64,000 nt of DNA from Hydrogenothermaceae bacterium. Lineage in GTDB: Bacteria; Aquificota; Aquificia; Aquificales; Hydrogenothermaceae. Below, piece after piece: positions 25,564 through 64,000 of the stretch; position 1 is the stretch's first letter; every line of letters starts with the position of its first letter. The translations under genes were made by a program, and so were the position numbers. Where the stretch lies: positions 189,463 through 253,462 of the forward strand of contig JALTUV010000036.1 in assembly GCA_027049315.1 (NCBI GenBank), given 5' to 3'. The notes below the pieces were generated by a model. The model was not told the DNA's origin, did not search any database, and was given only the letters and a program-made list of their open reading frames with translations.

Positions 25564-26106
25564 TTAACCTTTTATAGGAAATGAAGCCGTAGGAGTTCTC
25601 ACCGGTATTTCTTTAAGTTCTCTCCCTTCCTGTTTAGCTTTTATCTTCTTCTGCAGTTGAAGTATTCCCCACAGCAGTGCCTGTGGTGTAGGAGGGCAAC
25701 CTGGGACGTAAACGTCTACCGGAATTATTCTATCCACACCTTGAAGTGTAGAGTATGTAGGAAATGGTCCTCCACCTGAAGAACAACCACCCATTGATAT
25801 AACCCACTTAGGGTCAGGCATCTGGTCATATATGAGTTTTAGCATTGGAGCAACTTTATTTACAACTGTTCCGGCAACGATAAGCACATCAGACTGTCTT
25901 GGAGAACCTCTGAATATTATTCCCATTCTATCTGTATCAAATCTTGAAGCTGCAGTATGCATCATCTCTATAGCACAACATGCAAGCCCTATAGAAACAG
26001 GCCAGAGAGAGTTTCTCCTTCCCCAGCTTAAAACCTCTTCAACTGTTGTAAGTATTATTCCATTATTTCCACCTATTATTGCCATCTTAACGCTCCTTTT
26101 TTCCAA
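25564..26106 (-). CDS. nuoB: NADH-quinone oxidoreductase subunit B
   Basis: [10 protein letters not shown]...[10 protein letters not shown]...PGCPP Fe-S motifs. The true start is probably the internal MAIIGG. Confidence 0.9.
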
Positions 26107-26447
26107 GCATATACGTATCCTAATATTAATATAAGCAGGAATAAGAACATTTCCGTAACAATAAATACTGCATTTATCTTTGCTATGTATTTAAATACAT
26201 ACGCCCATGGAAAAACAAAAGCAGCTTCAAGGTCAAATAGAACCAGCAAAAGACCAAGTAGATAATATTTCTGGTCTATCGATGTCCATGTTGTCTTGTC
26301 ATATAGAGGAACACCACACTCGTAAGGATAACCTTCAAGTGGGTCTGGTATTTTAGGGGCTATGAGTCTGTTTAGAATTAAAAGCCCTATACCAAGAGCA
26401 GTGCTTATAATGAAGAATATAAGTATTGCAAAATACCCTTCACTCAT
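26076..26447 (-). CDS. nuoA: NADH-quinone oxidoreductase subunit A
   Basis: 123 aa, 3 TM; YECG...FDLE...FPWA conserved NuoA residues. Confidence 0.85.
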
Positions 26448-46313: not shown

Positions 46314-46408
46314 TTAAATAAAGGTTATTTTTAGTGCTTAGATTTTAGTTTTGTCTCTTGTATTTATTCTATTGTTATTTAAATAAGATAAAAAGAAGGA
46401 ATGAATAA

Positions 46409-46519: not shown

Positions 46520-46693
46520 TATCTGTTCCTACAATAGATGACAAAATAACACCCATAAAGAATAATATAACTGCAATAACAGCTGAAGCAATAGAACTAG
46601 AAATATTGAAGTCAGCCAAGGCAACATAATTATTATTTTTGGGAATGGAATAAATCTGATTCTATTTATATAACCATTCAAATTAAAAAACTT

Positions 46694-48412
46694 TTATCTG
46701 CTTCTTAATTTCCAAATTTCAATTTTTTCTTTGATTTCTGGACGTTCTTTTTCAAAATCCTCTAAAAACTTATCAAATTTTTCTATAAATTTTTCAACAC
46801 TTTTTTTTGATGTTTTCCTTTCATGCCTTATAAATGATAATAGAATTTTTAAAAATTCTGGGTTTTTTATACACTGTTCTATTTGTCTAAAATCAAGTTC
46901 ATTTAATTTTTCACCTTCCGTACTTGGACAATCCATTTTAAGAATACATAACATCAATTCCTTTAAGCCATCACATGAGTTAACAGTCAAGCTTTCGACT
47001 TCTTTTTCTTTAGTATCTATATACTTTTTGAGCTTGGGCACTTTCTCAGCCATGTTTTTTAAAGAATAAAGTCCGAATCTTTCTATTTTTATTATTCTTT
47101 TAAATTCTTCCTTATCTTCTATATAGATTTTATCTAAATATGAAGTGATAACATCGGCAAAATAATCTTTATATCTATTAGAATTTTCTTTGTCCATTAC
47201 TGATAATATTTCTATCATCCAACCATATAAATCTGATATAGAAAAAATGCTTAATATATCTTGTTTATATTGTTCAAAAGGTTTCCATATTTTTTCTATA
47301 AAATCTTTATCTTCATACTCAATAGAATAAACATAACGTTCAAATTCTTCTTCAAATTGATACTTTATTGCTAAATTCTTCCTCCTATTTAATTCTTCAT
47401 CAAACTTAATTCTAATTTCTTCAGTAATATCATCCGTCAATAATTCTGTATCAATATATTCAAAGAAAGGATAGATAAACTCTGGATAAAAAGAGATAAA
47501 TAAAAAATCAATTTTTTTTAAATGATTAAATAAATCAATTACATCTTTCGATTCCTTCGATAAATCTTTGTTTTTCAAATAAATATTAAATTCTCTAATA
47601 ATTTCTTTTATTGTTTTAGTATCTTTATTTTTGGCTTTTTTTAAATAAATAAATGGAAGCAAATATCTTACGGATTCTTTTAATAAATTTCTATCTACAT
47701 CAATATTACACAGCTTATTTATAAGATAACTAACCTGAAGCATACTACGAATGTTTTTTATATCATTAACAACAAAGAATTCTTTTGCTTCTTCATGAAA
47801 ACATTTAAATCTATTTTTTATAAGTTCAAAATTTTCTTCAACTGTGGGCTCATAAGTAAATTCAAAATCAACAATTTTTTCCTTGTATTCATCATATTCT
47901 TTTTTAAAGTGTTTGTACTTATCCAATAAGATTTCTTCATTTAAAATGAAAATAATTTTACATCTTTTATCTTCTTTGAGCTGAGCAATTAATCCCATGA
48001 TATCTTTTGGTTCAAGACAACTTGATAATCTTTCAAAATCGTCAATTACGACGATAGCATTTTTAATATCTGTAGTACTAACAAGAGATAATAAATTACC
48101 TATCGCTCCAGCTTTAGATGAAACTCCTTCTAACTGTTGTAAGACACGAGATACATCTCCCAAAATTTTTCTAAATTTTGCAATTTTAAAAACTATTTCA
48201 TTTTCAATTATATTTAAAGAATCTTTACCAAATAAAGATATATATGCATATCTCTGTCCAAAATTATTTAAAAAATTCCTTATAAAATGAGTTTTGCCAA
48301 CTCCCCATTTTCCCTTTATGACACATACAGTTTCTTCACTCTGATTTAAGATTTCTTTTAGATTATTTTCTATATCTTTTATGCTCATTTGAAATTCTTT
48401 ATCTTCTTCCAT
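46694..48412 (-). CDS. KAP-family P-loop NTPase (predicted)
   Basis: 572 aa; Walker A GKWGVGKTHF near the N-terminus and a distant Walker B VVIDDFERL, with a long helical C-terminal region. Divergent from hsdR. Confidence 0.6.
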   Translation of the reverse strand: MEEDKEFQMSIKDIENNLKEILNQSEETVCVIKGKWGVGKTHFIRNFLNNFGQRYAYISLFGKDSLNIIENEIVFKIAKFRKILGDVSRVLQQLEGVSSKAGAIGNLLSLVSTTDIKNAIVVIDDFERLSSCLEPKDIMGLIAQLKEDKRCKIIFILNEEILLDKYKHFKKEYDEYKEKIVDFEFTYEPTVEENFELIKNRFKCFHEEAKEFFVVNDIKNIRSMLQVSYLINKLCNIDVDRNLLKESVRYLLPFIYLKKAKNKDTKTIKEIIREFNIYLKNKDLSKESKDVIDLFNHLKKIDFLFISFYPEFIYPFFEYIDTELLTDDITEEIRIKFDEELNRRKNLAIKYQFEEEFERYVYSIEYEDKDFIEKIWKPFEQYKQDILSIFSISDLYGWMIEILSVMDKENSNRYKDYFADVITSYLDKIYIEDKEEFKRIIKIERFGLYSLKNMAEKVPKLKKYIDTKEKEVESLTVNSCDGLKELMLCILKMDCPSTEGEKLNELDFRQIEQCIKNPEFLKILLSFIRHERKTSKKSVEKFIEKFDKFLEDFEKERPEIKEKIEIWKLRSR

Positions 48413-48485
48413 ATCATCCTCTTTAATTGAATAATAGAATAAAACGTATTATATTCTTTTAAAGAACTTTAAGCTTTGTTAAACA

Positions 48486-51212
48486 ATGAAACCAGAAGAA
48501 AAAACAAGAGAATTAATAGACCAGCAGCTTAAAAATGCGGGATGGGAAGTTCAGGATTATAAAAGAATCAACCTATCATCAAATTTAGGTATAGCTGTAA
48601 GAGAATTCCCTTTAAAAGGTGGAATTACAGCAGATTATCTATTATTTGTAAATAAGAGAGCCATTGGTGTAATAGAGGCAAAACCAGAAGGAACTACTCT
48701 TGGAGGAGTTTCGGAGCAATCCCAAAGATACTTAGAATCATTACCTGAAAATATTCCTCACTATCAAATCCCTTTACCTTTTTCTTATGAAGCTTCTGGA
48801 ACAGAAATATTTTTTAGAGACATAAGAGACCCTGAATATCGTTCAAGAAGAGTTTTTTATTTTCACAAACCTCAAACACTGCAAGAATGGGCAGAAGATA
48901 AAACCACACTAAGACAAAGATTAAAAGAACTTCCTGTTAAATATCCTTTGAATAAAGAAGGTTTAAGAGATGCCCAATATGAAGCTATAAAAAATCTTGA
49001 AATTTCATTAGCACAGAATAAGCTCCGTGCCTTAATTCAAATGGCAACAGGCAGCGGTAAAACCTATGTAGCGGTAGCTGAAAGCTATAGACTAATCAAA
49101 TATGCAAAAGCAAAAAGAATTCTATTTCTTGTAGATAGAGCAAATCTTGGAAGGCAAACTTTAAGAGAATTTCAAAATTATATTACTCCAGATGATGGAA
49201 GAAAATTTACAGAGCTGTATAATGTTCAGTTATTAAATTCAAAGGTTATTGACCCTGTTAGTAAGGTTTGTATTTCAACAATTCAAAGAATGTATTCAAT
49301 ACTCAAAGGTGAAGAACTTGAAGAAGAATTAGATGAAAAATCTTTATTTGAGTTAGAAGAGAAAATAAAAAAACCTTTAGAAGTAGAATATAACCCAAAA
49401 GTTCCTATTGAAACATTTGATTTCATTATAGTTGATGAGTGCCACCGTTCAATTTATAACCTATGGAGACAGGTTTTAGAATACTTTGACGCTTTTATTA
49501 TTGGTTTAACTGCTACCCCTGCAAAACATACCATAGCCTTTTTTAATAAAAATCTTGTTATGGAATATCCACATGAAAAGGCTGTGGCTGATGGAGTAAA
49601 TGTTCCTTATGATGTTTATAGAATAAAAACGAAAATTTCAGAACAAGGTGCAAAAATAGATGCTGGTTTTAATGTAAAAAAGAGGGATAAATTAACAAGA
49701 GAGCAAAGATGGGAACTATTAGATGAAGAAGTTGAATATAATTCAAAACAACTTGATAGAAGTGTTGTTGTTCCTGACCAGATAAGAACAATTATAAGAA
49801 CATTCAAAGAAAAACTATTCACTGACCTTTATTTTTGCTAAAGATGATTCACATGCTGATGATATTGTTCATATAGTTAGGGAAGAATTTGGAAAAGGGA
49901 ATGAATTTTGTAAAAAAATCACATACAAAACAACTGGTGAAAAACCTGAAGATTTAATAGCAAGTTTTAGAAATTCTTATAACCCAAGAATCGTGGTGAC
50001 AGTTGATATGATTTCAACAGGAACAGACATAAAACCTGTTGAGTGTCTTATTTTTATGAGAGATGTTAAATCAAGGGTTCTATTTGAACAGATGAAAGGA
50101 AGAGGAACAAGAGTAATTAATTCTGAAGACTTACAGGCTGTCACTCCAGATACAAAACATAAAACACATTTTGTTATTATTGATGCTGTCGGTGTAACTG
50201 ATAATGATAAAACAGACTCAAGACCGCTTGAGAGAAAGAGAAGTGTTCCTTTTGAAAAACTCCTGTATAATGTAGCTTTAGGAATAAGAGATGAAGATAC
50301 TGTTCTTTCTTTAGGAAACAGATTAGCAAGACTTCAAAGAACTTTATCTGTTAATCAACAAAAAGAGTTAGAGGAAAGAGCAGGAAAACCACTAAAAGAC
50401 ATTATTAATAAACTTTTTGAATCAGTAGACCCTGATAAAAAGATAGAAAAAGCAAAAGAGTTATATAAAACTGAAAGTCCAACACAAGAGCAAATAAAAA
50501 AAGCAGAAGAAGAATTAATTAACAAAGCTTGCGAACCTTTAGATAATCCTGATTTTAGAGAGGCTTTAATCCAAATTAAAAAAGCTAATGAACAAATAAT
50601 AGATGATATAAATGTTGATGAGGTAACCTATGCAGGATTTGATGAAGAAGCAAAAGAAAGAGCAATGAAAACAATTGAAAGCTTTAAAAGGTTTATAGAA
50701 GACAACAAAGATGAAATTGATGCCCTACAGATAATTTATAACCAGCCGTATTCAAAAAGACATATAACATTTAAACAGATTAAGGAACTTGCAGAAAAAA
50801 TACAAAAACCACCTTATAACTTAACTCCTGAACATATATGGAAGGCATATGAACAACTTGAAAAATCAAAAGTTAAAGGTGCAGGAAGTGTTAAACTATT
50901 AACCGATATTATCTCACTTATCAGATTTACACTTGGAATTGATGAAGTTTTAATGCATTTTCCAGATATTGTTGACCAAAATTTCAAGAAATGGTTAAAA
51001 GAACAAGAAAAAAAGGCAGAAAATTTACAGATGAACAGATAGAATGGTTAAAAATGATAAAAGACCACATAGCAACAAGTGCAGAAATATCAAAAGATGA
51101 TTTTGATTATCCACCATTTAACGAAAAGGGAGGACTGATAAAGTTTTATAATCTTTTTGGAGATGAGATGGATAAAATATTAGAAGAGTTAAATGAGGAA
51201 TTAGTTGCATGA
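48486..51212 (+). pseudogene. hsdR: Type I restriction enzyme R subunit HsdR, interrupted by two frameshifts (three ORF fragments)
   Basis: Fragment 1 (48486-49841) holds the HsdR N-domain and helicase motifs I-III (QMATGSGKT, VDECHRS, LTATP). Fragment 2 (49993-51042; open from 49798 in the +1 frame) holds motif IV-VI (TFIFAKDDSHADD...VTVDMISTGTD). Fragment 3 (50991-51212) holds the EcoEI_R_C-like tail (KFTDEQIEWLKMIKDHIA). The frame switches lie at homopolymers: A5 at 49810-49814 or T5 at 49832-49836, and A7 at 51008-51014. Confidence 0.75.
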
Positions 51213-52806
51213 ATGAAAATAAATTGCCAGAGATACCAAAAGAATGGAAGTGGGTAAGATTAGAGGATGTATCATATTTAATAACAGATGGAACACATAA
51301 AACGCCAAAATATCAAGAAAAAGGTATAAGATTTATATCAATAGCAAATATAAGACCCTTTCAACCTATTAATTGGGATGCTTACGAGAAATATATTTCT
51401 TATGAAGAGCATTTAGAATTAATAAAAAGAGCAAAACCAGAGAAAGATGATATTTTGTTTCCAAGGATTGGAACCCTTGGATTTGCCAAAAGAATAGACT
51501 TTGATGAAGAAGTTTCAATTTTTGTTGGATTAGGTCTTGTAAAACCAATAAAAAAATATGTATTGCCTAAATATATTGAATATTACATGAATACACCTTA
51601 TGTAAATAAATATTCTCATAAAAAGCTACAGGAACAGGAAGATTAACTCTTCCGCTACATGCAAGTAAAGCAATGCCTTTCCCTCTTTCTCCCCTCCCTG
51701 AACAACAAAAAATTGTTGAGATTTTGGAAGAAGCATTTAGCAAAATTGATGCAGGGGTTGAAGGACTTAAAAAGATAAAAAAATTGCTTTCTTTATATAG
51801 ACAAGCGGTTTTAAAGTATGCCTTTGAAGGAAAACTCACTGAAGAATGGAGAGAGAAAAACAAAGATAAACTTGAACCAGCAGAAAAACTGATAGAAAAA
51901 ATAAAAAAAGAAAGAGAAGAAAGATACAAACAAGAGCTTGAAGAGTGGAAAAAAGCCTGTGAAATAGCTAAAAAAGAAGGTAAAAAGAAACCACCTAAAC
52001 CAAAACCACCAAAAGAACTCCCACCTATAACAGAAGAAGAACTGAAAAACTTACCAGAGGTACCAAAGGAGTGGAAGTGGGTAAGATTAGGAGAAGTAGG
52101 AACTGTTTATTCTGGAGGCACACCTTCTACAAAAGTTCCAAGTTATTGGGGTGATGAAATACCATGGATAACACCTGCTGATTTATCAGGCTATAAACAT
52201 AAATATATAAGTAAAGGTAGGAAATCTATAACTAAATTAGGATTAGAAAATTCTTCGGCAGTTTTAATGCCTGCTGGGACGGTATTATTTTCATCCAGAG
52301 CACCTATTGGGTATGTAGCTATAGCGTCAAATCCAGTTAGCACAAATCAGGGATTTAAAAGTATATATCCCTATAAAAGTATTCTAAGTGATTTTATCTA
52401 TTATTATTTGAAATTTGCTAAAGAAATTATAGAAAATATGGGAAGTGGAACCACATTTAAAGAGGTTTCTGCAAAAGTATTTAATTTAATTCCTTTTCCT
52501 TTATTATCTTTGTCTGAACAACAAAAAATCGTAGAAGAGATTGAATATAGACTATCAATAACTGATAAGCTTGAAGAAACAGTTGATAGACTTTTAGAAA
52601 AAGCAGAAAAGTTAAAACAATCCTATCTAAAATACGCATTTGAGGGAAAGCTAACAGAAGAATGGCGAAAACAAAACCCACATTTAATAACTGGCGAAAA
52701 CTCTGTAGATAGATTATTAGAAAAAATCAAAGCAGAAAAAGAAAAATTTGAAAAACAGAAAAAGAAGCCTAAAGTAAAACAAAAATCTTTGATAGGTACT
52801 AAATAG
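51209..52806 (+). pseudogene. hsdS: Type I specificity subunit HsdS, split by a frameshift after TRD1 (51209-51646 plus 51673-52806)
   Basis: TRD1 (LPEIPKEWKWVRLEDV...) ends prematurely. The -1 frame, open from 51622, reads KATGTGRLTLPLHASKAMPFPLSPLPEQQKIVEIL into the central conserved region, then TRD2 (LPEVPKEWKWVRLGEV) and a C-terminal repeat (AFEGKLTEEW). The slip is at A5, 51620-51624. ATGA overlap with hsdR. Confidence 0.7.
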
Positions 52807-54776
52807 TGAAATTAAAAAGTTTAAAAATAAAAAATGTAAAAAGCTTTAGAGATGAAACGGAATTTAACTTTCATGATGATTTTAATATCTTAATTGGAAC
52901 AAATGGCGGAGGAAAGAGTAATCTTTTAGATATTATTTCTATAGGATTAAAATATTTCTTATTTAATGGCTATACTTATAGCGAAAACTTTGATACAACA
53001 TACCAAAGATTAAATAGAAACATTAATCAAATTCCATTAGATACGTTATCAAGAAAATTGGAAAAATTTTACGGATATGTTAACGACAGTTCATTTATTG
53101 AGTTTGGTTTAATTTTAGAAGAACAAGATATTGAAATAATAAAGCTTGTTCAAAGCTATTTAAATAAAATAATTTCAGTTCTTGAACAAACTTTCAACAA
53201 TGGAAAGCATTTAATACAACATTTAAACTTAAATAGCTTAAGTAGTCTTGATATAAGTTCAATTCCAATTAATCAAGAGATAAAATTTAAATTTGTACAT
53301 AATCAACTAAGTTTTTCAGAAACAAATATTAGGCATCATACTGCTCAATTTATACAAAACTTTTTCAAAAGTTATGAAATTTTTAGAATTGCGAGTAATT
53401 ATATAGAAAATCTGAAATTACCACCTTTATTATTATTCTTTAGTCCTTATAGAAACTTAGAAATTAACAATCTTTCAATAATGCTATCAAACTTTAACTA
53501 TCCTGCTGAATATGAGAAATTATTTACATCTTCTTCTAAAGACACCTTAAATTTAACTAGACTTGCTATAGCTTATTTTGGAGAAAAAATGAGAGATTTC
53601 GAAGTTAAATCAAAAATTGATACTTGGGAAGAAGACGAAGAAGTTAAATTGGTTAGTAAATATTTAAATAAATTGGGGTATGGTTGGAATATAAAATTAA
53701 TAGATAAAATAAAAAATACTTATGAAATAGAATTAATAAAAGATGGTCAAGGTTTTTCAATTGACAATGCAAGTTCAGGTGAAAGGGAAATAATAAATTT
53801 CCTTTTTGGGATATTTGCCTTCAATATAAAAAATGGATTAATAATCATTGATGAGCCAGAACTTCACTTACATCCAAAATGGCAAAAAATATTATTAGAA
53901 CTATTTGTAGAGCTATCAGAATTAACAGGTAATCAATTTATTATTTCTACCCATTCGCCTATTTTCATTAATGAAAAAACTTACAATCATGTTGTTAGAA
54001 TTTACAAAGATAATGAAAATGTTAGCCGAGTAATTACTATTCAAGATAAACCATATTTAAAAATCAAGGATTTACTTCAACTTATTAACAGCACAAATAA
54101 TGAAAAGATTTATTTTGCAGATGCCGTTATATTAGTTGAAGGAATTACAGATAGAATAGTTTTTCAAAAAATTTTGGATGATATTATTGAAGAACAAAAT
54201 ATCAATAAGAACATTGAAATAATAGAAGTTAAAGGAAAATCAAATAGAGAAAAATTTAGAGTATTTCTCAATGAATTAAAAATACCTAACTTCTTTATTG
54301 GAGACTTTGATGTAATTACTAACTTAGATGGTTCTGAGGAAATAAAAGAAATATTTAAAACCAATGAAGAAAAAATTTATAAAGATGTAATAAAAAATAA
54401 AAACAGTAAAGATGGTAAAGAATTAGTCCACCAACTAGAAAAAGCTGTGGAAAGCTGTGATTGTGGTGATTTAAAAGAGCTATGGGAATATATAAAATAT
54501 CTAAGAAAAGAAATAAAAATTGATGCATTAAATGAAGAGGATAAAAGGAAAATATATGAGTTTATAGAAAACAAAAAGGCAGAAAATATTTATATATTAC
54601 CTAAAGGTGAGATTGAGGATTATTTACCTGAAGGATATAAAACAAAAGATGTTGAAAATGCAATTAAATTAATCAATTCTCCAGAAGATTATAATAAGTG
54701 GAAAGAAACACCTGAGTACAAAGAACTTGAAAAGTTGATAAAAGAAATAATAAATAAAATTACTTCAAGAGGTTAA
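52806..54776 (+). CDS. OLD-family / PARIS (AriA-AriB fusion)-like ABC-type ATPase plus Toprim nuclease
   Basis: 656 aa; Walker A GTNGGGKSN; Walker B/D-loop IIIDEPELHLHP; H-loop ISTHSP; C-terminal Toprim-like VILVEGITDR...FIGDFDV. The GTG start overlaps the hsdS stop (TAGTG); the stop is 4 nt before the hsdM ATG. Confidence 0.65.
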   Translation: MKLKSLKIKNVKSFRDETEFNFHDDFNILIGTNGGGKSNLLDIISIGLKYFLFNGYTYSENFDTTYQRLNRNINQIPLDTLSRKLEKFYGYVNDSSFIEFGLILEEQDIEIIKLVQSYLNKIISVLEQTFNNGKHLIQHLNLNSLSSLDISSIPINQEIKFKFVHNQLSFSETNIRHHTAQFIQNFFKSYEIFRIASNYIENLKLPPLLLFFSPYRNLEINNLSIMLSNFNYPAEYEKLFTSSSKDTLNLTRLAIAYFGEKMRDFEVKSKIDTWEEDEEVKLVSKYLNKLGYGWNIKLIDKIKNTYEIELIKDGQGFSIDNASSGEREIINFLFGIFAFNIKNGLIIIDEPELHLHPKWQKILLELFVELSELTGNQFIISTHSPIFINEKTYNHVVRIYKDNENVSRVITIQDKPYLKIKDLLQLINSTNNEKIYFADAVILVEGITDRIVFQKILDDIIEEQNINKNIEIIEVKGKSNREKFRVFLNELKIPNFFIGDFDVITNLDGSEEIKEIFKTNEEKIYKDVIKNKNSKDGKELVHQLEKAVESCDCGDLKELWEYIKYLRKEIKIDALNEEDKRKIYEFIENKKAENIYILPKGEIEDYLPEGYKTKDVENAIKLINSPEDYNKWKETPEYKELEKLIKEIINKITSRG

Positions 54777-54780
54777 TACA

Positions 54781-56214
54781 ATGACTCAATCAGATATAGT
54801 TCAAAAAGTTTGGAATTATTGTAATGTTTTAAGAGATGACGGAGTAAGTTATGGAGATTATTTAGAGCAACTTACATATTTATTATTTTTAAAGATGGCT
54901 TATGAATACTCTAAACCACCATATAACAGAGAATCCATTATTCCTAAAGGTTTAGATTGGGAAAGTTTAAAATCAAAAGAAGGTTCAGAACTTGAAGCAC
55001 ATTATATAAAAATTCTCCAAGAACTTGGTAGAAAATCAGGATTATTAGGTCTAATCTTTAGAAAAGCACAAAATAAAATCCAAGACCCAGCAAAATTAAA
55101 AAGATTAATATCTCTAATAGACCAAGAAAACTGGGTAGGTTTAGATATAGATGTAAAAGGTGAGATTTATGAAGGATTGCTTCAAAAGAACGCAGAAGAT
55201 ACAAAAAGCGGAGCAGGTCAATACTTTACACCAAGACCTTTAATTAAAGCAATTGTTGAAGTTATGAGACCACAGCCAAATATGACTATTTGTGACCCTG
55301 CTTGTGGAACAGGTGGATTTTTAATAGCAGCTTATGAATATATAACAAAACACTATCCATTAGATAAAGAACAGAAAGAGTTTTTGAAAAATAAAGCCTT
55401 TAAAGGATGGGAGATAGTAGATAACACAGCCAGACTTTGTGCAATGAATCTTTATTTACATGGAATTGGTGGTGAAAATAGTATTCCTGTAATTGTTCAA
55501 GATGCGTTAGCTGTTGACCCAGGAGAGAGATTTGATATGGTTCTCACAAATCCACCTTTTGGAAAGAAAAGCAGCATAACCATAACAAACGAAGAAGGAA
55601 AGGAAGATAAAGGAGGATTAATATATCAAAGAGATGATTTTTGGGTTACCACATCAAACAAACAACTTAACTTTTTACAACACGTCAAAACAATTTTAAA
55701 AATAAATGGAAAAGCAGCTGTAGTTATACCTGATAACGTTTTATTTGAAGGTGGAGCAGGAGAGGTTATTAGAAGAAAATTGCTTCATGAATTTGATGTC
55801 CATACACTTCTTAGACTTCCAACAGGTATATTTTATGCACAGGGTGTTAAAGCAAACGTCTTATTTTTCGATAAAAAGCCTGCCAGAGAAAAACCTTGGA
55901 CAGAGAAGCTTTGGATTTATGATTTTAGAACAAACAAAAAATTTACACTAAAGAAAAATCCTCTTAGATTTGAGGATTTACAGGACTTTATAAAATGTTT
56001 CAATCCAGAAAATAGACTTGAAAGAAAAGAAACAGAAAGATTTAAAGCTTTTACCTATGATGAATTAATAAACAGAGACAAAGTAAACCTTGATATAACC
56101 TGGCTAAAAGATAAATCTTTAGATGACATTGAAAATTTACCACATCCTGATGAGTTACTATCTGAAATTCTTAATGAAATAGAATCTATATATGAAGAAT
56201 TTAGAGATATTTAG
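54781..56214 (+). CDS. hsdM: Type I restriction-modification N6-adenine DNA methyltransferase subunit
   Basis: 477 aa; an HsdM N-domain, motif I DPACGTGGFL, motif IV LTNPPFGKK. Apparently intact. Confidence 0.9.
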   Translation: MTQSDIVQKVWNYCNVLRDDGVSYGDYLEQLTYLLFLKMAYEYSKPPYNRESIIPKGLDWESLKSKEGSELEAHYIKILQELGRKSGLLGLIFRKAQNKIQDPAKLKRLISLIDQENWVGLDIDVKGEIYEGLLQKNAEDTKSGAGQYFTPRPLIKAIVEVMRPQPNMTICDPACGTGGFLIAAYEYITKHYPLDKEQKEFLKNKAFKGWEIVDNTARLCAMNLYLHGIGGENSIPVIVQDALAVDPGERFDMVLTNPPFGKKSSITITNEEGKEDKGGLIYQRDDFWVTTSNKQLNFLQHVKTILKINGKAAVVIPDNVLFEGGAGEVIRRKLLHEFDVHTLLRLPTGIFYAQGVKANVLFFDKKPAREKPWTEKLWIYDFRTNKKFTLKKNPLRFEDLQDFIKCFNPENRLERKETERFKAFTYDELINRDKVNLDITWLKDKSLDDIENLPHPDELLSEILNEIESIYEEFRDI

Positions 56215-56260
56215 AGTTTTGCAATAAGAGTATATTTAAAGTTCGCCCAACCTTTTCTTT

Positions 56261-56614
56261 TGGTGGAGGCGGGGGGAATCGAACCCCCGTCCGAGAACAG
56301 CCCTCGCACGGGCTTTCTACAGGCTTAGCCTGTGATTAAGGTTTCGCCTGCAGCGTCCCCACAGGCAGGGCTACTGCAGGCTATCCCCGTAAGAGTTTCG
56401 GGAAGTGCCTCAGGGGAGCTTGGCACTCCCCTATCCCGTGTATCTGTCGCCCTTCCTGAGCCCACGGGCAAACTCAGGAGGACGTCGCTGCGCTAATTAG
56501 GCAGCGAGAGCGAGTTCACGTTCGGGAATTGTTTGCGCTTGGTTTTTTACGGAGTTCTCCTTCTCCGGCCTGCTTACCCGGCTCGGCTGTTCCCGTCGAA
56601 CCCGCATCGCCCCC
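56261..56614 (-). ncRNA. ssrA: tmRNA (ssrA), 354 nt
   Basis: 5' GGGGGCGATGCGGGTTCGACGGG...; 3' tRNA-like end GGTTCGATTCCCCCCGCCTCCACCA (G3:U pair in the acceptor). The internal tag reading frame ends ...PERELALAA-TAA. Confidence 0.8.
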
Positions 56615-56652
56615 ATATTCAATTGTGGCATAAATATATTTCTATTTTTTTA

Positions 56653-57672
56653 TTATGCAAGTATCTCGTGTACCACTTTTACAACGATTATACCTCCAAA
56701 AAATAAGAACAGGAATATAATAAACGCAGAGTATATAGGCTTCATGCCTACACCTTTTATTTTATTAATGTTTGTTTCAATTCCCATAGCCCCCATCGCT
56801 ACCGTTAATAAAAAACCGTCGATTACGTTAATTCCTGACACAATATTTTTAGGAATTACGTGGGTTGAATTGACAATAACCATAGCGATAAACCCAAAAA
56901 CGAACCACGGTATAGGTATATCCCTGAGTGTAACTCCTGCACCGTGGGTTGCATGTTTCTTTGCAAGATTAAAGCTCAAAGCTATTAAAAGAGGTGCCAA
57001 CATCATAACCCTTGTAAGTTTTGCAATAGTTGCAGTGTTTCCTGCATCAAGGGAAACCGCAAAACCTGCAGCTACAACCTGTGCAACTTCATGAACAGTG
57101 GCTCCTGTCCAAAGACCGTATAAAATGTCATTAAAGTCTAACAATAATCCTGCTTTATAAACGACAGGATATATAAACATAGCTATTGTCCCAAATATCG
57201 TTACAGTTGCTACAGCCATAGCTGCATGGTGCATCTCTGCTTTTACAACAGGTGCAGTGGCAAGGACTGCAGAAGCTCCACATATTGAACTTCCTGATGC
57301 TATTAGATAGCTCATCTGACTATCAAGTCCAAATATTTTCTTTGATACCCATACACCAAGTAAAAAAGTTCCAACAAGCATTATTGTATCAACTATTAAG
57401 CCTTCTAATCCTACAGAGGCTACCTCCTGAAGTGTCAATCTAAAGCCAAGGAAAACTATTGCTATTCTTAGTATTTTCTTTAAAGAAAAAATAATTCCCG
57501 GCTTAAAATTTTCAGGAAACTTTACTACGTTTCCCAAAACAATCCCAAGAAGAATAGCTATTATAAGAGGACTGAAATTAACAGTTGATTTGATAATTTC
57601 TAAGTTTGATAAAAATGTTGCCACAACAGCAAGAGAAAAAGTAACAGTGAGACCGGGTATTAATTTTATCAT
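56653..57672 (-). CDS. Polytopic inner-membrane protein (possibly a UPF0324/YeiH-type transporter)
   Basis: 339 aa, about 10 TM helices. The family call is tentative. Confidence 0.45.
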   Translation of the reverse strand: MIKLIPGLTVTFSLAVVATFLSNLEIIKSTVNFSPLIIAILLGIVLGNVVKFPENFKPGIIFSLKKILRIAIVFLGFRLTLQEVASVGLEGLIVDTIMLVGTFLLGVWVSKKIFGLDSQMSYLIASGSSICGASAVLATAPVVKAEMHHAAMAVATVTIFGTIAMFIYPVVYKAGLLLDFNDILYGLWTGATVHEVAQVVAAGFAVSLDAGNTATIAKLTRVMMLAPLLIALSFNLAKKHATHGAGVTLRDIPIPWFVFGFIAMVIVNSTHVIPKNIVSGINVIDGFLLTVAMGAMGIETNINKIKGVGMKPIYSAFIIFLFLFFGGIIVVKVVHEILA

Positions 57673-57832
57673 TTATTACCTCTCTGCATTTATGTAAAAC
57701 AAAATTATAAATAATACAAGCATATATAATAATTTGAAAATATTAATATCCTTATTTACATTTTGCTGATTACTTGAATAAAGAAAAATGGGTATATAAA
57801 TTTATAGGTTAACACTGATTCAGAGGTTTGCG

Positions 57833-60442
57833 ATGGAGAAAGTCTCCACACCTATGTTAGCCCAATACCATAAGATAAAAAATGATTATCAAGACGCACT
57901 TCTTCTATACAGGTTAGGTGATTTTTATGAGCTTTTCTACGAAGATGCAGTAATTGGAGCTAAAGAGTTAAATATTGTTTTAACTAAGAAAAAAGTTGGA
58001 AAAGCTGCATCAATACCAATGTGCGGTATTCCTTATCATGCAGCTGATAGTTACATATCAAGGCTTGTCTCTAAAGGGTATAAAGTAGCAATATGTGAAC
58101 AGCTTGAGGATGCATCAAAAGCAAAGGGTATAGTAAAGAGGGATGTTATAAGAGTTATAACACCCGGGACTTATTTTGATAATGAAAAATTCAAAGCATC
58201 CCTTTTATCTTTATATCCTAAAGGTAAAAATTACTATATAGCTTATTTAGACCTCTCAACTGGAGAGTTTGACGTAGGTGTACTTGATAAGGACAACCTT
58301 ATATCTTTTATAGGAAAATTTCAGCCAAAAGAAATCCTTATTCCGAAAGATTTATCCATTCCTGAAGTTAAGGAGCACTTTAAAACAGTGTTTTTCACAG
58401 AACTAACTGAAGATTTTTTCTCCTTTGATTCGGTTAAGGAGATGTATAATTTCTTTGGTGTTTCTCATTACTCTGCATTTGGAATAGATGAATTCCAAAA
58501 GGACGTTATCTATCCGGCTTCGGCTGCGGTTAAATATGTGAAGACCACTCAAAAATCTTTCTTACCGTTTATAAATCCGCCAAAGATTTATACAGATGAC
58601 AGGTATGTCAGACTGGATTACTCAGCACAGAAACACTTGGAACTTGTTCATGCTAATGACGGAAATATACCTCTCTTCAGAGTAATAGACAGAACACTTA
58701 CAGGTATGGGAAAGAGGAGGCTAAGGTTCTTCCTCCTTCATCCTCTAAAGGAAAAATCTCTCATTGAAAAGAGACTTGAAGCTGTTGAAGAGCTTGTAAA
58801 TAACAATGAACTAAGGGAAAAAATAAGAAGCAGACTGGATAACATTTTTGATGTTGAAAGACTTATATCAAAAATAACATCAAACACACTTACTCCAAGG
58901 GATATGATAGCCCTGAGGGAATCCTTAAAGGAGATAAGGGAGTTAAGAGGTTTGGGGAAAGAGGTAAAATCTGAGCTATTGAGGAGAATATTTAAAAAAA
59001 TCGAAGATTACACATGGTTGATTGATAAGTTAGACAGGACACTCGAGGATAATCCTCCTATTCATCTGAAGGAAGGAGGTCTTATAAAAAAAGGTGTGAA
59101 CGAAGAATTAGATGAGTTAAAAGAGATAAAGGAGAAGGGAAATAAATGGATAAAGGAGTATCAGGAAAAACTCAGACAAGAAACCGGAATCCAAAGTTTA
59201 AAAATTGGATTTAACAAAGTTATGGGTTATTACATAGAAGTTACAAAACCAAATCTTAAATTTGTTCCTGAGTACTTTAGAAGAAGACAGACCCTTTCAA
59301 ATGCAGAGCGTTTTATTACAGATGAACTTCAGAGATTTGAAGAAAAGATTTTATCTGCTGACGAAAAGATAAAAGCCTTTGAGTATGAGATTTTTATGAA
59401 AATAAGAGAAGAGGTATCTCTTCTATCAGGCAGGATTGCAAAAACAGCTCAGAATGTTGGAGTTTTAGATGCTATAACGTCAATTGCCCAAATATCTGTA
59501 GAAAAGGGATGGGTAAAGCCGGAGATTACCGATGATTTTGATATTTACATAGAGGAAGGATACCATCCAACAATAAAGGAATTTGCGAGGGACTTTGTGC
59601 CAAATACTCTTAAGATGAACAAAAACAGTTTTTTCCACATTATCACAGGTCCAAATATGGCAGGAAAGAGTACATTTATTAGACAGTCAGCTATTATCAT
59701 AATACTTGCCCAAATGGGTTCCTATATCCCTGCTCAAAAGGGAAGAATAGGAGTAGTGGATGCTGTACTAACAAGAATCGGTTCCGGTGATGCCCTTGCC
59801 AAAGGTCTATCGACGTTTATGGTAGAAATGCTTGAAATGGCAAACATAATAAACAATGCCACAAACAGGAGTTTTATCGTTCTTGATGAAGTAGGAAGAG
59901 GAACAAGTACTTATGATGGTATTTCTATAGCTTGGGCGATATCTGAGTACCTTGCAAAGAAGGTAGGAGTAAAAACACTCTTTGCTACTCATTATCATGA
60001 ACTTACAGATTTAGAATCACAGATAAAAGGTGTTAAAAACTTCCATATGGAAATTAAAGAGGATGGAGATGAGATTATATTTCTGTATAGACTGATGGAA
60101 GGATTTTCAAATAAGAGCTATGGAATCCATGTTGCAAAATTAGCGGGTATTAAAGAAGAAATAATAAAAAGGGCTTATGAAATCCTGTATCATTATGAGG
60201 AGAAGCATTATATAAAAGCAGACGAAGATGAGAAATTAGAAATAAAACAACCTGTTGAAGAGTTTAAAGTAGAAGAGAAGGAAGTTCTTCCACTTTTTAG
60301 AGAAATAGAAAATTTAGGTCAGTCGGAGAATGAAGAAATTATTAAAAAAATTGAAGAAATAGATATTGGAACAATAACACCGGTGGAAGCACTGCTAATA
60401 CTCAATGAACTAAAACAGAAAATAAAACAGAAGAAGAGCTAA
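57833..60442 (+). CDS. mutS: DNA mismatch repair protein MutS
   Basis: 869 aa; the N-terminal mismatch-binding domain (MLAQYHKIK...GDFYELF), Walker A GPNMAGKST, and a C-terminal HTH/dimerisation region. Confidence 0.95.
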   Translation: MEKVSTPMLAQYHKIKNDYQDALLLYRLGDFYELFYEDAVIGAKELNIVLTKKKVGKAASIPMCGIPYHAADSYISRLVSKGYKVAICEQLEDASKAKGIVKRDVIRVITPGTYFDNEKFKASLLSLYPKGKNYYIAYLDLSTGEFDVGVLDKDNLISFIGKFQPKEILIPKDLSIPEVKEHFKTVFFTELTEDFFSFDSVKEMYNFFGVSHYSAFGIDEFQKDVIYPASAAVKYVKTTQKSFLPFINPPKIYTDDRYVRLDYSAQKHLELVHANDGNIPLFRVIDRTLTGMGKRRLRFFLLHPLKEKSLIEKRLEAVEELVNNNELREKIRSRLDNIFDVERLISKITSNTLTPRDMIALRESLKEIRELRGLGKEVKSELLRRIFKKIEDYTWLIDKLDRTLEDNPPIHLKEGGLIKKGVNEELDELKEIKEKGNKWIKEYQEKLRQETGIQSLKIGFNKVMGYYIEVTKPNLKFVPEYFRRRQTLSNAERFITDELQRFEEKILSADEKIKAFEYEIFMKIREEVSLLSGRIAKTAQNVGVLDAITSIAQISVEKGWVKPEITDDFDIYIEEGYHPTIKEFARDFVPNTLKMNKNSFFHIITGPNMAGKSTFIRQSAIIIILAQMGSYIPAQKGRIGVVDAVLTRIGSGDALAKGLSTFMVEMLEMANIINNATNRSFIVLDEVGRGTSTYDGISIAWAISEYLAKKVGVKTLFATHYHELTDLESQIKGVKNFHMEIKEDGDEIIFLYRLMEGFSNKSYGIHVAKLAGIKEEIIKRAYEILYHYEEKHYIKADEDEKLEIKQPVEEFKVEEKEVLPLFREIENLGQSENEEIIKKIEEIDIGTITPVEALLILNELKQKIKQKKS

Positions 60443-60708
60443 ATTTCACAGTTTTTAATAATAGCATTGTACGCCTCTTCTGTATTTTTAAATTTCCCAA
60501 CAATCTTTTTGTTTTTTAGACATTCCGATATGTAAATATCCTTATCCTTTAGTTTTAAGATTATACCTATATACTCTTTATTATCTGTAATAACATCCAT
60601 AAAAGGGTCAGAAACGTGAATTATCGGTTCTACATCTTTATCAACAAAAGCAAAAGAGCCTGTAAATAGAGTTAATACAGTTAAAAATAAGCCTATACTT
60701 TTCCTCAT
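60439..60708 (-). CDS. Small exported hypothetical protein
   Basis: 89 aa with a signal peptide (MRKSIGLFLTVLTLFTGSFA). Confidence 0.45.
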   Translation of the reverse strand: MRKSIGLFLTVLTLFTGSFAFVDKDVEPIIHVSDPFMDVITDNKEYIGIILKLKDKDIYISECLKNKKIVGKFKNTEEAYNAIIKNCEI

Positions 60709-60862
60709 TTCTCACCTCCTTTAATTTTTTAAAGAAAAAAGTTCTCTAAAAGGTCTCCTTGAAAATTGGAGAACTTTGATTTGTGAAAGAGGTTAACATT
60801 ATATTTATACGGGTTTATAACTATTATGATTAGAATCATTATAATTATATTGGAGGGAGAAA

Positions 60863-62131
60863 ATGGCATATAGTACATCTCTAAAAGCAGATAGAATTAA
60901 GAGCAGCAGGGATAAATCATTGATTGTCCCTGATAACCCATCAATTCCATTTATAAAGGGAGATGGAATAGGTAAAGAGGTTATACCCTCAGCAATTTAC
61001 GTTATTAATAAAGCGGTGGAAAAGGCTTACGGTAAAAAGAAAAAAATTCACTGGTTTGAGATTTATGCTGGCGAGTCAGCTTTAGAAAAAACAGGAGAAC
61101 TTCTTCCGAATGAAACAGTTGAAACCATCAAAGAGCATCTCGTATGTCTAAAGGGTCCAATTATAACTCCTGAAGGTAGAAAAAAATCGTTAAATGTAGA
61201 GTTAAGACAGAAGCTAAATCTTTACACATCTATAAGACCTGTTATATGGTACGGGCAGGGTTCTCCCGTTAGAAGTCCGGAACTTGTAGATTATATGATT
61301 TTTAGAGAGAATACCGATGATATATATCTTGGAATTGAGTTTGAAAAGGACACTAACGAAGCTTTAAAAGTTCTAAGTTTTTTAAGAAATGATATGAACG
61401 TTCTACGTTCAGATTTACCATCGGATTGTGCTTTAGCTCTAAAACCTACTTCAGAAGAAAAATCAAAAAGACATATAAGAAAAACTTTCAGAGAGGCTCT
61501 GTTTTATAACAGAAGAATAATAACTGTTGTTCATAGGGGCAATATACTAAAGAAAACAGAAGGTTTGTTTGTTAAGTGGGCATATGAAGTGGCAAAAGAG
61601 GAAGAATTCAAAGACCTCATAATATCGGAAGAAGAGTTAAGTACATACTTTAGTGGTGATTTTGAGAGGGCAATAAGTGAGGGGTTTAAACTCCTTCTTA
61701 AAGACAGATTAATCACATCAGTTTTAGGACATCTAATATCAAGAATTGAAGAATACGATGTCATGCTTGCCCAAAATCTAAACGGTGATTATTTCACTCA
61801 TAGTGCAGCAAGCCTGATAGGAGGGGTTCAGTTTATACCGGTTGCTAACATAGGTGATGAAACTGCTGTATTTGAGACATTACACGGAGTAGCAAAAAGT
61901 ATAGCAGGGAAAGGAATAGCAAATCCAACAGGAGCTATTCTTGCAGGGAAAATGCTTTTAGAACATATAGGATGGTGTGAAGCTGCAGAAAAAATAGTAA
62001 AAGCTTTAAAACAGACATATGCGGATTGGGTAGGAACGTATGATGTAATAAGAGAGTGGTCATCTGCTGCCATCCCAGGTAAAAAGGTTGATACTCAAGG
62101 CTTTGTGGAGAATGTTATAAAAAACATGTAA
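60863..62131 (+). CDS. icd: Isocitrate dehydrogenase, homodimeric prokaryotic (E. coli Icd) type
   Basis: 422 aa; IPFIKGDGIGKEV; KGPIITPEG-KKSLNVELRQKLNLY (the regulatory Ser context is conserved); NLNGDYFTHSAASLIGG. Confidence 0.85.
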   Translation: MAYSTSLKADRIKSSRDKSLIVPDNPSIPFIKGDGIGKEVIPSAIYVINKAVEKAYGKKKKIHWFEIYAGESALEKTGELLPNETVETIKEHLVCLKGPIITPEGRKKSLNVELRQKLNLYTSIRPVIWYGQGSPVRSPELVDYMIFRENTDDIYLGIEFEKDTNEALKVLSFLRNDMNVLRSDLPSDCALALKPTSEEKSKRHIRKTFREALFYNRRIITVVHRGNILKKTEGLFVKWAYEVAKEEEFKDLIISEEELSTYFSGDFERAISEGFKLLLKDRLITSVLGHLISRIEEYDVMLAQNLNGDYFTHSAASLIGGVQFIPVANIGDETAVFETLHGVAKSIAGKGIANPTGAILAGKMLLEHIGWCEAAEKIVKALKQTYADWVGTYDVIREWSSAAIPGKKVDTQGFVENVIKNM

Positions 62132-62132
62132 T

Positions 62133-62153
62133 AAAAAATCAAACACTGTTTTA
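62133..62153. promoter_or_regulatory. Conserved palindromic motif AAAAAATCAAACAcTGTTTTA (copy 3 of 3), between icd and the monomeric IDH gene
   Basis: Same 19-bp motif as at 23734 and 26459. Confidence 0.4.
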
Positions 62154-62224
62154 TTTTTAAAAAAATTTTTGTATAATAACTTGCCAGAAAATCCAAAAAA
62201 TAAACTTAAAGGAGGAGTGTGCTT

Positions 62225-64000
62225 ATGGCAAAAGCCAGAATAATATGGACAAAAGTAGACGAGGCTCCACAGCTTGCAAGTTATTCCCTTTTACCTATCA
62301 TGAGGGCATTTACAAAAGATGCAGATGTTGAAATTGAAGTAAGGGATATTTCCCTTGCTGGAAGGATACTTGCCCAGTTCCCAGACCTTCTCTCAGAAGA
62401 TAAAAGGGTACCTGATGACCTTGCATATCTTGGGGAACTTGTGTGGAAACCTGAAGCAAACATAATGAAACTACCTAACATATCAGCATCTTTACCACAG
62501 TTAAAAGAAGCTATAAAGGAACTTCAGGAACAGGGATATCCATTACCGGACTACCCTGACAATCCTCAAACTGAAGAGGAAAAAGATATAAAGGCAAGAT
62601 ACGACAGGTGTGTAGGTTCTGTTGTTAACCCGGTTTTAAGACAGGGGAACTCAGACAGAAGACTTGCAGAGGTTGTTAAGGAGTACGCAAGAAAGCATCC
62701 TCATAAACTAAAAGAGGTGTCTCCTCACTCAAAATCCCATGTAGCTCATATGAAAACAGGTGATTTTTACGAGCATGAAAAATCTGTAATCATAGATAAA
62801 GACACAAAAATCAAATACATATTCGAGGATGAAAATGGAAACCAGACTGTTCTAAAAGAGGTTGAGGTTGAAAGGGGAGACGTTGTAGATGGAACGTTTA
62901 TGAGCAGAAAGAAACTCAGAAAGTATTTTGAAGAAGTTATTGAAACTGCAAAAGAAGAAGATATTCTCTTCTCTCTTCACGTAAAAGCAACAATGATGAG
63001 GGTTTCAGACCCGGTTATATTCGGGGATGCTATAAGGGTTTACTATGCAAAGTTATTCGAAAGACATGGAGATTTACTTGAGAAGTTAGGATGGAAGCCT
63101 GAATCGGGACTTCAGGAACTTGAAAACAGATTAGACCAGCTTTCTGAAGAAGAAAGAAACGCTATAAAGAAAACGATAGAAGAGATATACAAAGAAAGAC
63201 CAAGAATGTACATGGTTGATTCTGATAAGGGAATTACTAACCTCCACATGCCTAACGACGTTATCATTGATGCATCTGTTCCTGCTGTGATTAAAAACGG
63301 TCTTCAGGGATGGGGTCCCGACGGTGAAACTGAAGATGTTGTTCTTTCAATTCCTGACAGGTCTTATGCAAGAATGTACAAAGAGATTGTTGAAGATATA
63401 AAAGCAAGGGGACAGTTTGACCCAACAAAAATAGGAACTGTTCAAAACGTTGGACTTATGGCAATGAAAGCTGAAGAATACGGTTCCCACGACAAAACGT
63501 TCTTCCCACCTGCAGATGGAAAGATGAAAGTTGTTGACGAAGAAGGAAACGTTCTCATAGAACACTGTGTAGAAGAAGGAGATATTTGGAGAAGCTGTAT
63601 CACAAAAGATATAGCTATAAGAGACTGGGTAAAGCTCGCTGTAAACAGAGCTAAAGATTCAGGTTTTCCTATTGTATTCTGGCTCGATGAGTACAGGGCA
63701 CATGATAAAAATCTCATTGAGAAAGTAAAAGAGGAGCTTCCTAAGTACGACCTTGAAGGAATAGACTGGTACATAAAAGCTCCAGACGATGCTATGAAGT
63801 TCACCCTTGCAAGATTTAGAAATGGAGAAAACACTATCTCCGTGACAGGAAACGTTTTAAGGGACTACCTGACAGACCTATTCCCTATTATTGAAGTTGG
63901 TACATCTGCAAGGTCTCTATCTATTGTTCCTGAGATTGCCGGTGGTGGACTTTTTGAAACAGGTGCAGGTGGTTCAGCTCCAAGACACGTTGAGCAGTTC
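62225..64000 (+). CDS. idh: Monomeric-type isocitrate dehydrogenase (about 740-aa family), 5' part; continues past the window end
   Basis: [25 protein letters not shown]...[21 protein letters not shown]...[23 protein letters not shown] is collinear with the Azotobacter/Corynebacterium monomeric ICDH. Confidence 0.85.

Follow-up and report, generated by a model that had tools for sequence, protein, structure and literature searches.

Probable recent decay of a Type I restriction-modification operon, acquired horizontally by a vent Hydrogenothermaceae bacterium, with hsdR and hsdS broken by one 32-bp and two one-base deletions

The stretch of DNA analyzed here, 64,000 nt at its full length and called the window throughout, comes from an uncultured Hydrogenothermaceae bacterium (Aquificota) of a hot vent and contains a Type I restriction-modification (R-M) operon in which hsdR is spread over three open reading frames (ORFs) and hsdS over two, with hsdM intact (Table 1). 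This layout had been proposed in an initial annotation of the sequence and is borne out by the ORFs and the domain matches, with three-frame translation placing the changes of frame near 49830 (frame 0 to 1), 51010 (1 to 0) and 51622 (2 to 1). An OLD-family nuclease gene is embedded between hsdS and hsdM, and a KAP-family NTPase gene forms a divergently transcribed pair with hsdR. No single ORF encodes an HsdR with the nuclease domain and both RecA-like motor domains, and no one polypeptide holds two HsdS target recognition domains (TRDs) joined via the central conserved helix. HsdM has its N6-adenine methyltransferase motifs (an FxGxG-type S-adenosylmethionine site and NPPF) and is 93 to 98% identical to the HsdM of intact operons, the motifs being invariant. 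We read the locus, with a probability of about 0.82, as the genuine, recent and ordinary decay of a horizontally acquired operon that lost hsdR and hsdS through a 32-bp and two one-base deletions.

Table 1. Features of the hsd locus and its surrounding island, in window positions
Feature	Position	Strand	Basis
Variable 9.6-kb defense island (KAP NTPase, hsdR, hsdS, OLD-family gene, hsdM)	46597..56216		Comparison with sister contig L084; GC content
KAP-family P-loop NTPase, 572 aa, intact	46694..48412	-	Pfam KAP_NTPase, AAA_22; PADLOC candidate PDC-S49, E = 5.5e-20
hsdR fragment a: nuclease domain and RecA-like domain 1	48486..49841	+	Pfam HSDR_N, ResIII, DEAD
Lesion 1: junction of 32-bp deletion	49828..49831	+	DNA alignments with L001, L002, L003, L088, L089
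hsdR fragment b: RecA-like domain 2 and first part of EcoEI_R_C tail	49831..51042	+	Pfam EcoEI_R_C; frame +1 relative to fragment a
Lesion 2: A7 tract in hsdR	51008..51014	+	A8 in closest intact relative, L088
hsdR fragment c: C-terminal part of EcoEI_R_C, original frame again	51015..51212 (ORF 50991-51212)	+	EcoEI_R_C profile positions 91-162; alignment
hsdS fragment a: about 139 authentic residues, covering TRD1 only	51209..51646	+	Weak Pfam Methylase_S match
Lesion 3: CAT AAA AAG in hsdS, one base missing	51617..51625	+	Alignment with intact relatives
hsdS fragment b: central conserved region, TRD2, C-terminal conserved region	51621..52806	+	Methylase_S E = 3.6e-33; alignment
Intact gene for an OLD-family ABC-ATPase/TOPRIM nuclease of 656 aa, embedded in the operon	52806..54776	+	Pfam AAA_15, AAA_21, OLD-like_TOPRIM; PADLOC Old E = 3e-44
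hsdM, 477 aa, intact	54781..56214	+	Pfam N6_Mtase E = 3e-70, HsdM_N; motifs DPACGTGGF and NPPF

To define the state before the lesions, DNA from five relatives with intact genes (L001, L002, L003, L088 and L089) was fetched and aligned to the window. HsdR is 919 aa long in all five, at nucleotide identities to the window of 87 to 95% (L088, 94.9%; L001 and L003, about 92 to 94%; L089, 87.5%; L002, 87%), and their hsdR and hsdS ORFs run uninterrupted through the sites of the one-base lesions. L002 has the gene order of the window (KAP, hsdR of 919 aa, hsdS of 532 aa, OLD of 656 aa and hsdM of 477 aa). Furthermore, a search with the frame-repaired window HsdR returned many full-length homologues of 915 to 930 aa, the closest showing 82 to 95% identity. 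An exact-protein look-up returned no contigs encoding the exact window HsdM, and a scan of genome contigs with HsdM found relatives at no more than 74% amino acid identity, from many phyla, with no sister strain among them. The comparison of orthologous loci, which the initial annotation had named as a way to check the breaks, gave two kinds of answer: intact alleles in five relatives, which revealed the 32-bp loss, and a further sequence (scaffold L087, below) that speaks for inactivation.

All five intact relatives have 32 extra bases between window positions 49828 and 49831. The four short runs to which the initial annotation had traced the breaks (A5 at 49810-49814, T5 at 49832-49836, A7 at 51008-51014 and A5 at 51620-51624) are all present at those positions, and a 1-nt slip at the first A5 or at T5 is ruled out as the cause of lesion 1 by the extra bases in the relatives. 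The deletion has a 2-nt TT microhomology at its flanks, so that its end-points are ambiguous within TT; it shifts the frame by +1 and removes the codons of 11 residues, FPGRKEVPKTI. In the alignment, hsdR fragment a is collinear with the 919-aa homologues as far as ...KEKLFTDL, and the window continues after the frame change with IFAKDDSHA, where all homologues read KEKLFT(D/E)LFPGRKEVPKT(I/L)IFAKDDSHA. The authentic frame of fragment a ends at 49829 and is followed by four out-of-frame codons and a TAA stop, while the first start codon within fragment b is GTG at 49993 (ORF 49993-51042).

The deleted residues, 449 to 459 of the 919-aa homologues, show conservation of at least 90% even when homologues of as little as 67% identity are included. 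They fall in the opening part of Pfam Helicase_C (residues 445 to 553 of the intact homologue P0001), the second RecA-like motor domain, and align with the strand preceding KTIVFC in the Vibrio vulnificus HsdR structure 3H1T, the solved structure closest to the window HsdR. Re-joining the fragments by a single base, which had been expected to give a full-length and motif-complete protein, yields 908 aa instead of 919 aa and lacks these near-invariant residues. Frame arithmetic alone can mislead: set beside intact relatives, what looked like a slip proved to be a loss of 32 bp, and homopolymer miscalling cannot produce a deletion of this size.

Lesion 2 lies in a tract that has seven A in the window (GAAAAAAAGG) and eight in L088 (GAAAAAAAAGG), with GAGAAAAAAGG or GAAAAACAGGG in the other relatives. 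At the codon level, L088 reads GAA AAA AAA GGC and the remaining relatives GAG AAA AAA or GAA AAA CAG. On these alignments, lesion 2 is a true one-base contraction from A8 to A7 that breaks the C-terminal EcoEI_R_C domain, and it is the only one of the three lesions to be a clear homopolymer contraction. At lesion 3, where the window has CAT AAA AAG (CATAAAAAGCT), intact relatives have CAT GAA AAA G, CAT GAA AAG G or CAT GAG AAT G (L088, CATGAAAAAGCT; L002, CATGAAAAGGCT; L001, CATGAGAATGCT). Most simply, this would be the loss of the G before the A5 run, the alternative route (G>A and then A6 to A5) taking two steps. The proposal that all breaks are homopolymer slips thus holds at the A7 tract, fails at site 1 and is doubtful at site 3.

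The hsdS break falls at the end of TRD1, before the central conserved dimerization helix and just upstream of the ...PLSPLPEQQKIVEIL motif. When repaired, HsdS has 532 aa and, across both TRDs, matches the unbroken proteins of L002 and L001 at 93% identity. We also observe that the central conserved region of HsdS (window positions about 51680-52060; repaired residues about 160 to 285) is unusually long, at about 125 aa, with a Lys/Glu-rich helix and a proline-rich stretch (KKEGKKKPPKPKPPKELPP), and is nearly invariant in all relatives despite their differing TRDs.

If the frameshifts were homopolymer miscalls, the genes would be intact in the organism, and it is true that A runs contain or adjoin two of the three lesions and that the sequence is a metagenome-derived contig. 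The MutS of the window is, however, also encoded on an ENA metagenome scaffold of 90 kb (L087; REYS20-1_SAMN12239309) that shows the same broken ORF pattern. L087 matches window positions 47833-64000 at 99.852% identity over 16,168 nt, with 24 single nucleotide polymorphisms (SNPs) and 0 indels, and this separate assembly with its distinct consensus has all three lesions, including the 32-bp gap. The exact 29-nt deletion junction had no match in a scan of JGI metagenome contigs, so that L087 is the sole independent sighting of the deleted allele. The 24 SNPs themselves fall in five tight clusters (50771-50821, 56304-56308, 56970-57190, 61732-61840 and 63571-63586), a pattern that suggests short recombination tracts or strain-mixture consensus calls, not clock-like divergence.

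The homopolymer runs of the neighboring genes bear on the same question. Across 45 core genes (49.7 kb) there are 451 runs of at least 5 bases, 46 of at least 7 and 9 of exactly 8, none of them frameshifted, and the genes for KAP, OLD and HsdM add 73 clean runs of at least 5, for a total of 524 in intact genes. One-nucleotide indels at runs of at least 5 are thus concentrated in hsdR/hsdS relative to elsewhere (Fisher P = 0.0095), and the probability that all three lesions would land in these two genes is 4e-4 if they fell uniformly over all coding sequence. This agrees with the initial annotation, which had found no comparable frameshifts in core genes, long ones included: ileS, glnD, mutS, nuoL and icd match their family models (NCBIfam) end to end. 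Three further places that might be taken for broken genes proved otherwise, with 62132-63441 (one large ORF-free gap) being a monomeric isocitrate dehydrogenase (IDH) gene that runs off the window end, 11872-12303/12161-12436 a pilin gene with a spurious overlapping ORF, and 25564-26447 nuoB and nuoA.

Indel errors at A7 or A8 are rare in Illumina 2x150 data. The data here were probably of this kind and assembled with MEGAHIT, to judge from the label REYS20-1 and the Brothers volcano study (PMC7768687). A sequencing artefact is very unlikely because lesion 1 is a 32-bp deletion and not a run-length error, because a second assembly 24 SNPs away has identical indel states, and because 0 of the 524 other runs are frameshifted. 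That genuine inactivation is at least as likely as error, as had been held on the window sequence alone, is strongly supported by the 32-bp deletion and by L087.

The initial annotation had also raised on/off switching, in which reversible slippage at the short A/T tracts would toggle restriction and/or specificity. Phase-variable Type I hsdS and hsdM genes do exist, NgoAV with its hsdS poly-G tract being an example (PMC7383803); as in such systems, the hsdS frameshift of the window lies near a mononucleotide run and parts TRD1 from TRD2, and at site 2 close relatives do differ in run length, A8 against A7. For hsdR, on/off switching is excluded: an irreversible loss of 32 bp upstream of the A7 tract leaves the gene off at any tract length. 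On present sequence, hsdR thus appears irreversibly dead.

The tracts themselves are also short. A survey of phase-variable Type I genes demanded mononucleotide tracts of at least 9 bases (PMC7383803), whereas the runs here are A7 in hsdR and A5 in hsdS, and no homopolymer run anywhere in the window exceeds 8. This AT-rich genome has many A7 and A8 runs (the window holds 63 runs of at least 7), and A8 at site 2 is found only in L088 (95% identical), the tracts of the other relatives being interrupted, in most by a G or C. Tract lengths do not vary between the near-identical window and L087, a comparison of two sequences only. In addition, known switching repeats in hsdS lie between the two TRDs, so that the truncated product keeps TRD1 and the central helix (PMC7383803), whereas the window hsdS breaks before that helix. 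Switching of hsdS is therefore unsupported, and phase variation of the system as a whole is hardly credible. The comparison with intact relatives thus settled both the artefact and the phase-variation questions without reads.

A remodeled methyltransferase deserves more weight, in which hsdR is dead and HsdM is active with a half-S homodimer of the C-terminal HsdS fragment, with both fragments, or with a full-length HsdS made by leaky -1 slippage; the outcome would be a methylation-only enzyme of the same or a palindromic specificity. Neither M nor S alone binds DNA, and methylation requires the M2S trimer (PMC3874165). Active half-S proteins, which the initial annotation had invoked for the second hsdS ORF, are on record, among them EcoR124I delta50, EcoDXXI deltaC and deltaN, and the S. 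aureus CC398-1 half-S; the homodimer of EcoDXXI deltaN is active, and wild-type specificity returns when N and C halves are expressed together (PMC3874165). By analogy, a single-TRD S from the window could in principle dimerize and direct palindromic methylation: hsdM is intact including its catalytic motifs, and hsdS fragment b, with an ATG start at 51673 (ORF 51673-52806), includes the central region in full as well as TRD2 and the C-terminal region.

Several features of the fragments speak against such an enzyme. There is no Shine-Dalgarno sequence before ATG 51673, compared with 35 of 51 window genes that have one in a survey of upstream sequences. Functional half-S proteins consist of one TRD and one helix, whereas fragment a has a TRD without any dimerization helix and fragment b has two helices with TRD2. 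As of 2013, half-S homodimers had been reported only for the Type IC family (PMC3874165), while the EcoEI_R_C domain marks the window system as Type IB-like. The intactness of hsdM is, moreover, compatible with chance.

Slippage could in principle supply the missing protein, since a -1 slip at either one-base lesion leads into the wild-type downstream frame. Site 2 carries an X_XXY_YYZ heptamer in the zero frame (GAA AAA AAG, that is, A_AAA_AAG), and at site 3 the deletion has left a slip-prone AAA_AAG in frame at CAT_AAA_AAG (T_AAA_AAG), where only the A-site codon re-pairs fully. The five relatives have no frameshift at either site, and their hsdS is uninterrupted, so that frameshifting is not a conserved design. 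Downstream of the window sites, the RNA folds no better than shuffled sequence, any stimulatory structure being insignificant at site 3 (z = -1.3) and absent at site 2. Programmed -1 frameshifting of the dnaX type was rejected as a designed feature on these two grounds, and because of them any HsdS or HsdR made by slippage would be accidental leakiness.

Taken together, we regard the remodeled methyltransferase as unlikely, and residual methylation of any kind would likewise have a low but not negligible chance. Still less probable is a restriction-less module in which the OLD nuclease and HsdM are kept by selection and in which -1 slippage or a C-terminal half-HsdS gives residual, possibly palindromic, methylation. 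If true, loss of the toxic restriction subunit after horizontal transfer would have left a natural remnant of the 'methylation-only plus embedded nuclease' kind.

Ordinary decay has its own weak points. A minority intact allele is possible in the population, the sequences compared being consensus sequences only, and the window and L087 may represent different samples or assemblies whose read sets overlap; for sites 2 and 3 taken alone, an artefact common to both assemblies is formally possible. Leaky synthesis of HsdS from the X_AAA_AAG motifs at both one-base deletions is conceivable. Intact hsdM, OLD and KAP genes could hint at retained function, yet chance suffices to explain them: within the island, the probability that all three of three lesions fall in hsdR/hsdS is P = 0.096. 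Because this value is not enough, no claim of selection on hsdM, OLD or KAP is made.

The course of events that best fits ordinary decay is as follows. A Type IB-like operon (hsdR, hsdS, OLD-family nuclease gene, hsdM) on a 9.6-kb island beside the tmRNA (transfer-messenger RNA) gene appears to be in an early stage of gene decay. The microhomology-flanked 32-bp deletion killed hsdR by shifting the frame and by taking away 11 conserved residues where RecA-like domain 2 begins; the contraction from A8 to A7, which would have come later, broke the EcoEI_R_C domain at the HsdR C terminus, and a one-base deletion split hsdS at the end of TRD1. We infer that no R2M2S complex forms and that restriction is absent. 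HsdM, left with no complete HsdS as its DNA-targeting partner, has probably lost methylation or keeps at most a residual activity, and hsdM, OLD and KAP would be either still useful or not yet hit. Decayed R-M systems and frameshifted hsd genes are commonplace. For genome annotation, hsdR and hsdS are best entered as pseudogenes, and defense or methylome surveys of vent Aquificota should leave the locus out of their tally of active Type I systems.

With respect to timing, the window branch of hsdR carries 11 synonymous and 7 non-synonymous private substitutions, and the ratios in intact relatives are 19:11, 21:8 and 33:19. We infer that inactivation was recent because this branch has no excess of non-synonymous changes, as would fit purifying selection until lately; a long-standing pseudogene was ruled out on the same ground. 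HsdR residue 180 (window 49024-49026), a few residues before Walker A, is Leu in the window and Pro in 9 of 9 aligned homologues (NKPRALIQMATGSGKT), and this private, non-conservative change may be a sign of relaxed constraint.

The surroundings of the operon point to horizontal acquisition. In the sister contig L084, which has 94% nucleotide identity to the window in the flanks, 245 nt (8135-8380) stand in place of the whole island, and both share these flanks, a five-tRNA cluster and the tmRNA gene. The island has a GC content of 23 to 31% versus about 35% in the flanks, and its right edge lies about 45 nt past the 3' end of the tmRNA gene (56261-56614, minus strand). The same operon stands beside the tmRNA 3' end in L002 and beside a tRNA in L001. 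Because it is absent from L084 and adjacent to tmRNA or tRNA in these two relatives, the hsd operon is part of an island that is mobile or variable. As to a tmRNA island of the classical, integrase-mediated kind, there is no integrase gene among the island ORFs, and no att-type or flanking repeat is evident at the two boundaries read, with no dedicated repeat search.

The operon appears Type IB-like by the Pfam EcoEI_R_C (PF08463) tail domain of HsdR; this domain is matched by hsdR fragments b (E = 4e-24) and c (E = 5e-19) and by the intact homologue P0001 (E = 4e-45). It shares with the Type IB systems EcoAI and EcoEI the hsdR/hsdS/hsdM trio, an HsdR with a PD-(D/E)xK nuclease, a superfamily 2 (SF2) motor and EcoEI_R_C, an HsdS with two TRDs and an HsdM that is an N6-adenine methyltransferase. 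It differs from them in that hsdR and hsdS are pseudogenes and in its order hsdR-hsdS-X-hsdM, a foreign defense gene being inserted.

The slot between hsdS and hsdM is filled differently among relatives whose operons are otherwise 87 to 94% identical. The window and L002 (8415-10385) have a single OLD-family ATPase-TOPRIM gene there, and L001 (5810-8118) and L003 (5124-7447) a Septu pair, with PtuA of 519 aa and PtuB of 250 to 255 aa (PADLOC E = 3e-188 and 3e-75 for L001). Unrelated defense genes inside Type I operons are known from PrrC in EcoprrI (PMC3874165) and from TgvAB in Vibrio cholerae VPI-2 and the rlo genes of Campylobacter jejuni (PMC11411939). The present operons are in line with these, the cargo being an OLD-family nuclease or Septu and not an anticodon nuclease or a GmrSD-like enzyme, and in the window the host operon is decaying around it. 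The swappable slot thus adds examples to the known theme of embedded defense. A KAP NTPase gene lies divergently and directly upstream of hsdR in four loci (the window, L001 2-1192, L002 2221-3984 and L089 813-2024) and, by this recurrence, may be a functional partner of this type of Type I operon.

At the left end of the island, the small ORF 46529-46681 resembles a truncated remnant of a 66-aa ORF in L084. The same tRNA-tmRNA interval holds a second indel, a 2.6-kb gene of L084 (5156-7765) whose 869-aa product carries Ig-like repeats (Cep192/HYDIN-like Pfam matches), where the window has only about 90 nt (46315-46403). The host is assigned to the Hydrogenothermaceae (Aquificota) by MutS homologues, at 68 to 74% identity to named Persephonella. 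Downstream of mutS, genes for NADP-isocitrate dehydrogenase, monomeric IDH and a two-gene ATP-citrate lyase adjoin (window 60863-64000; L087 13031-19921), a cluster that is consistent with an autotroph using the reductive tricarboxylic acid cycle.

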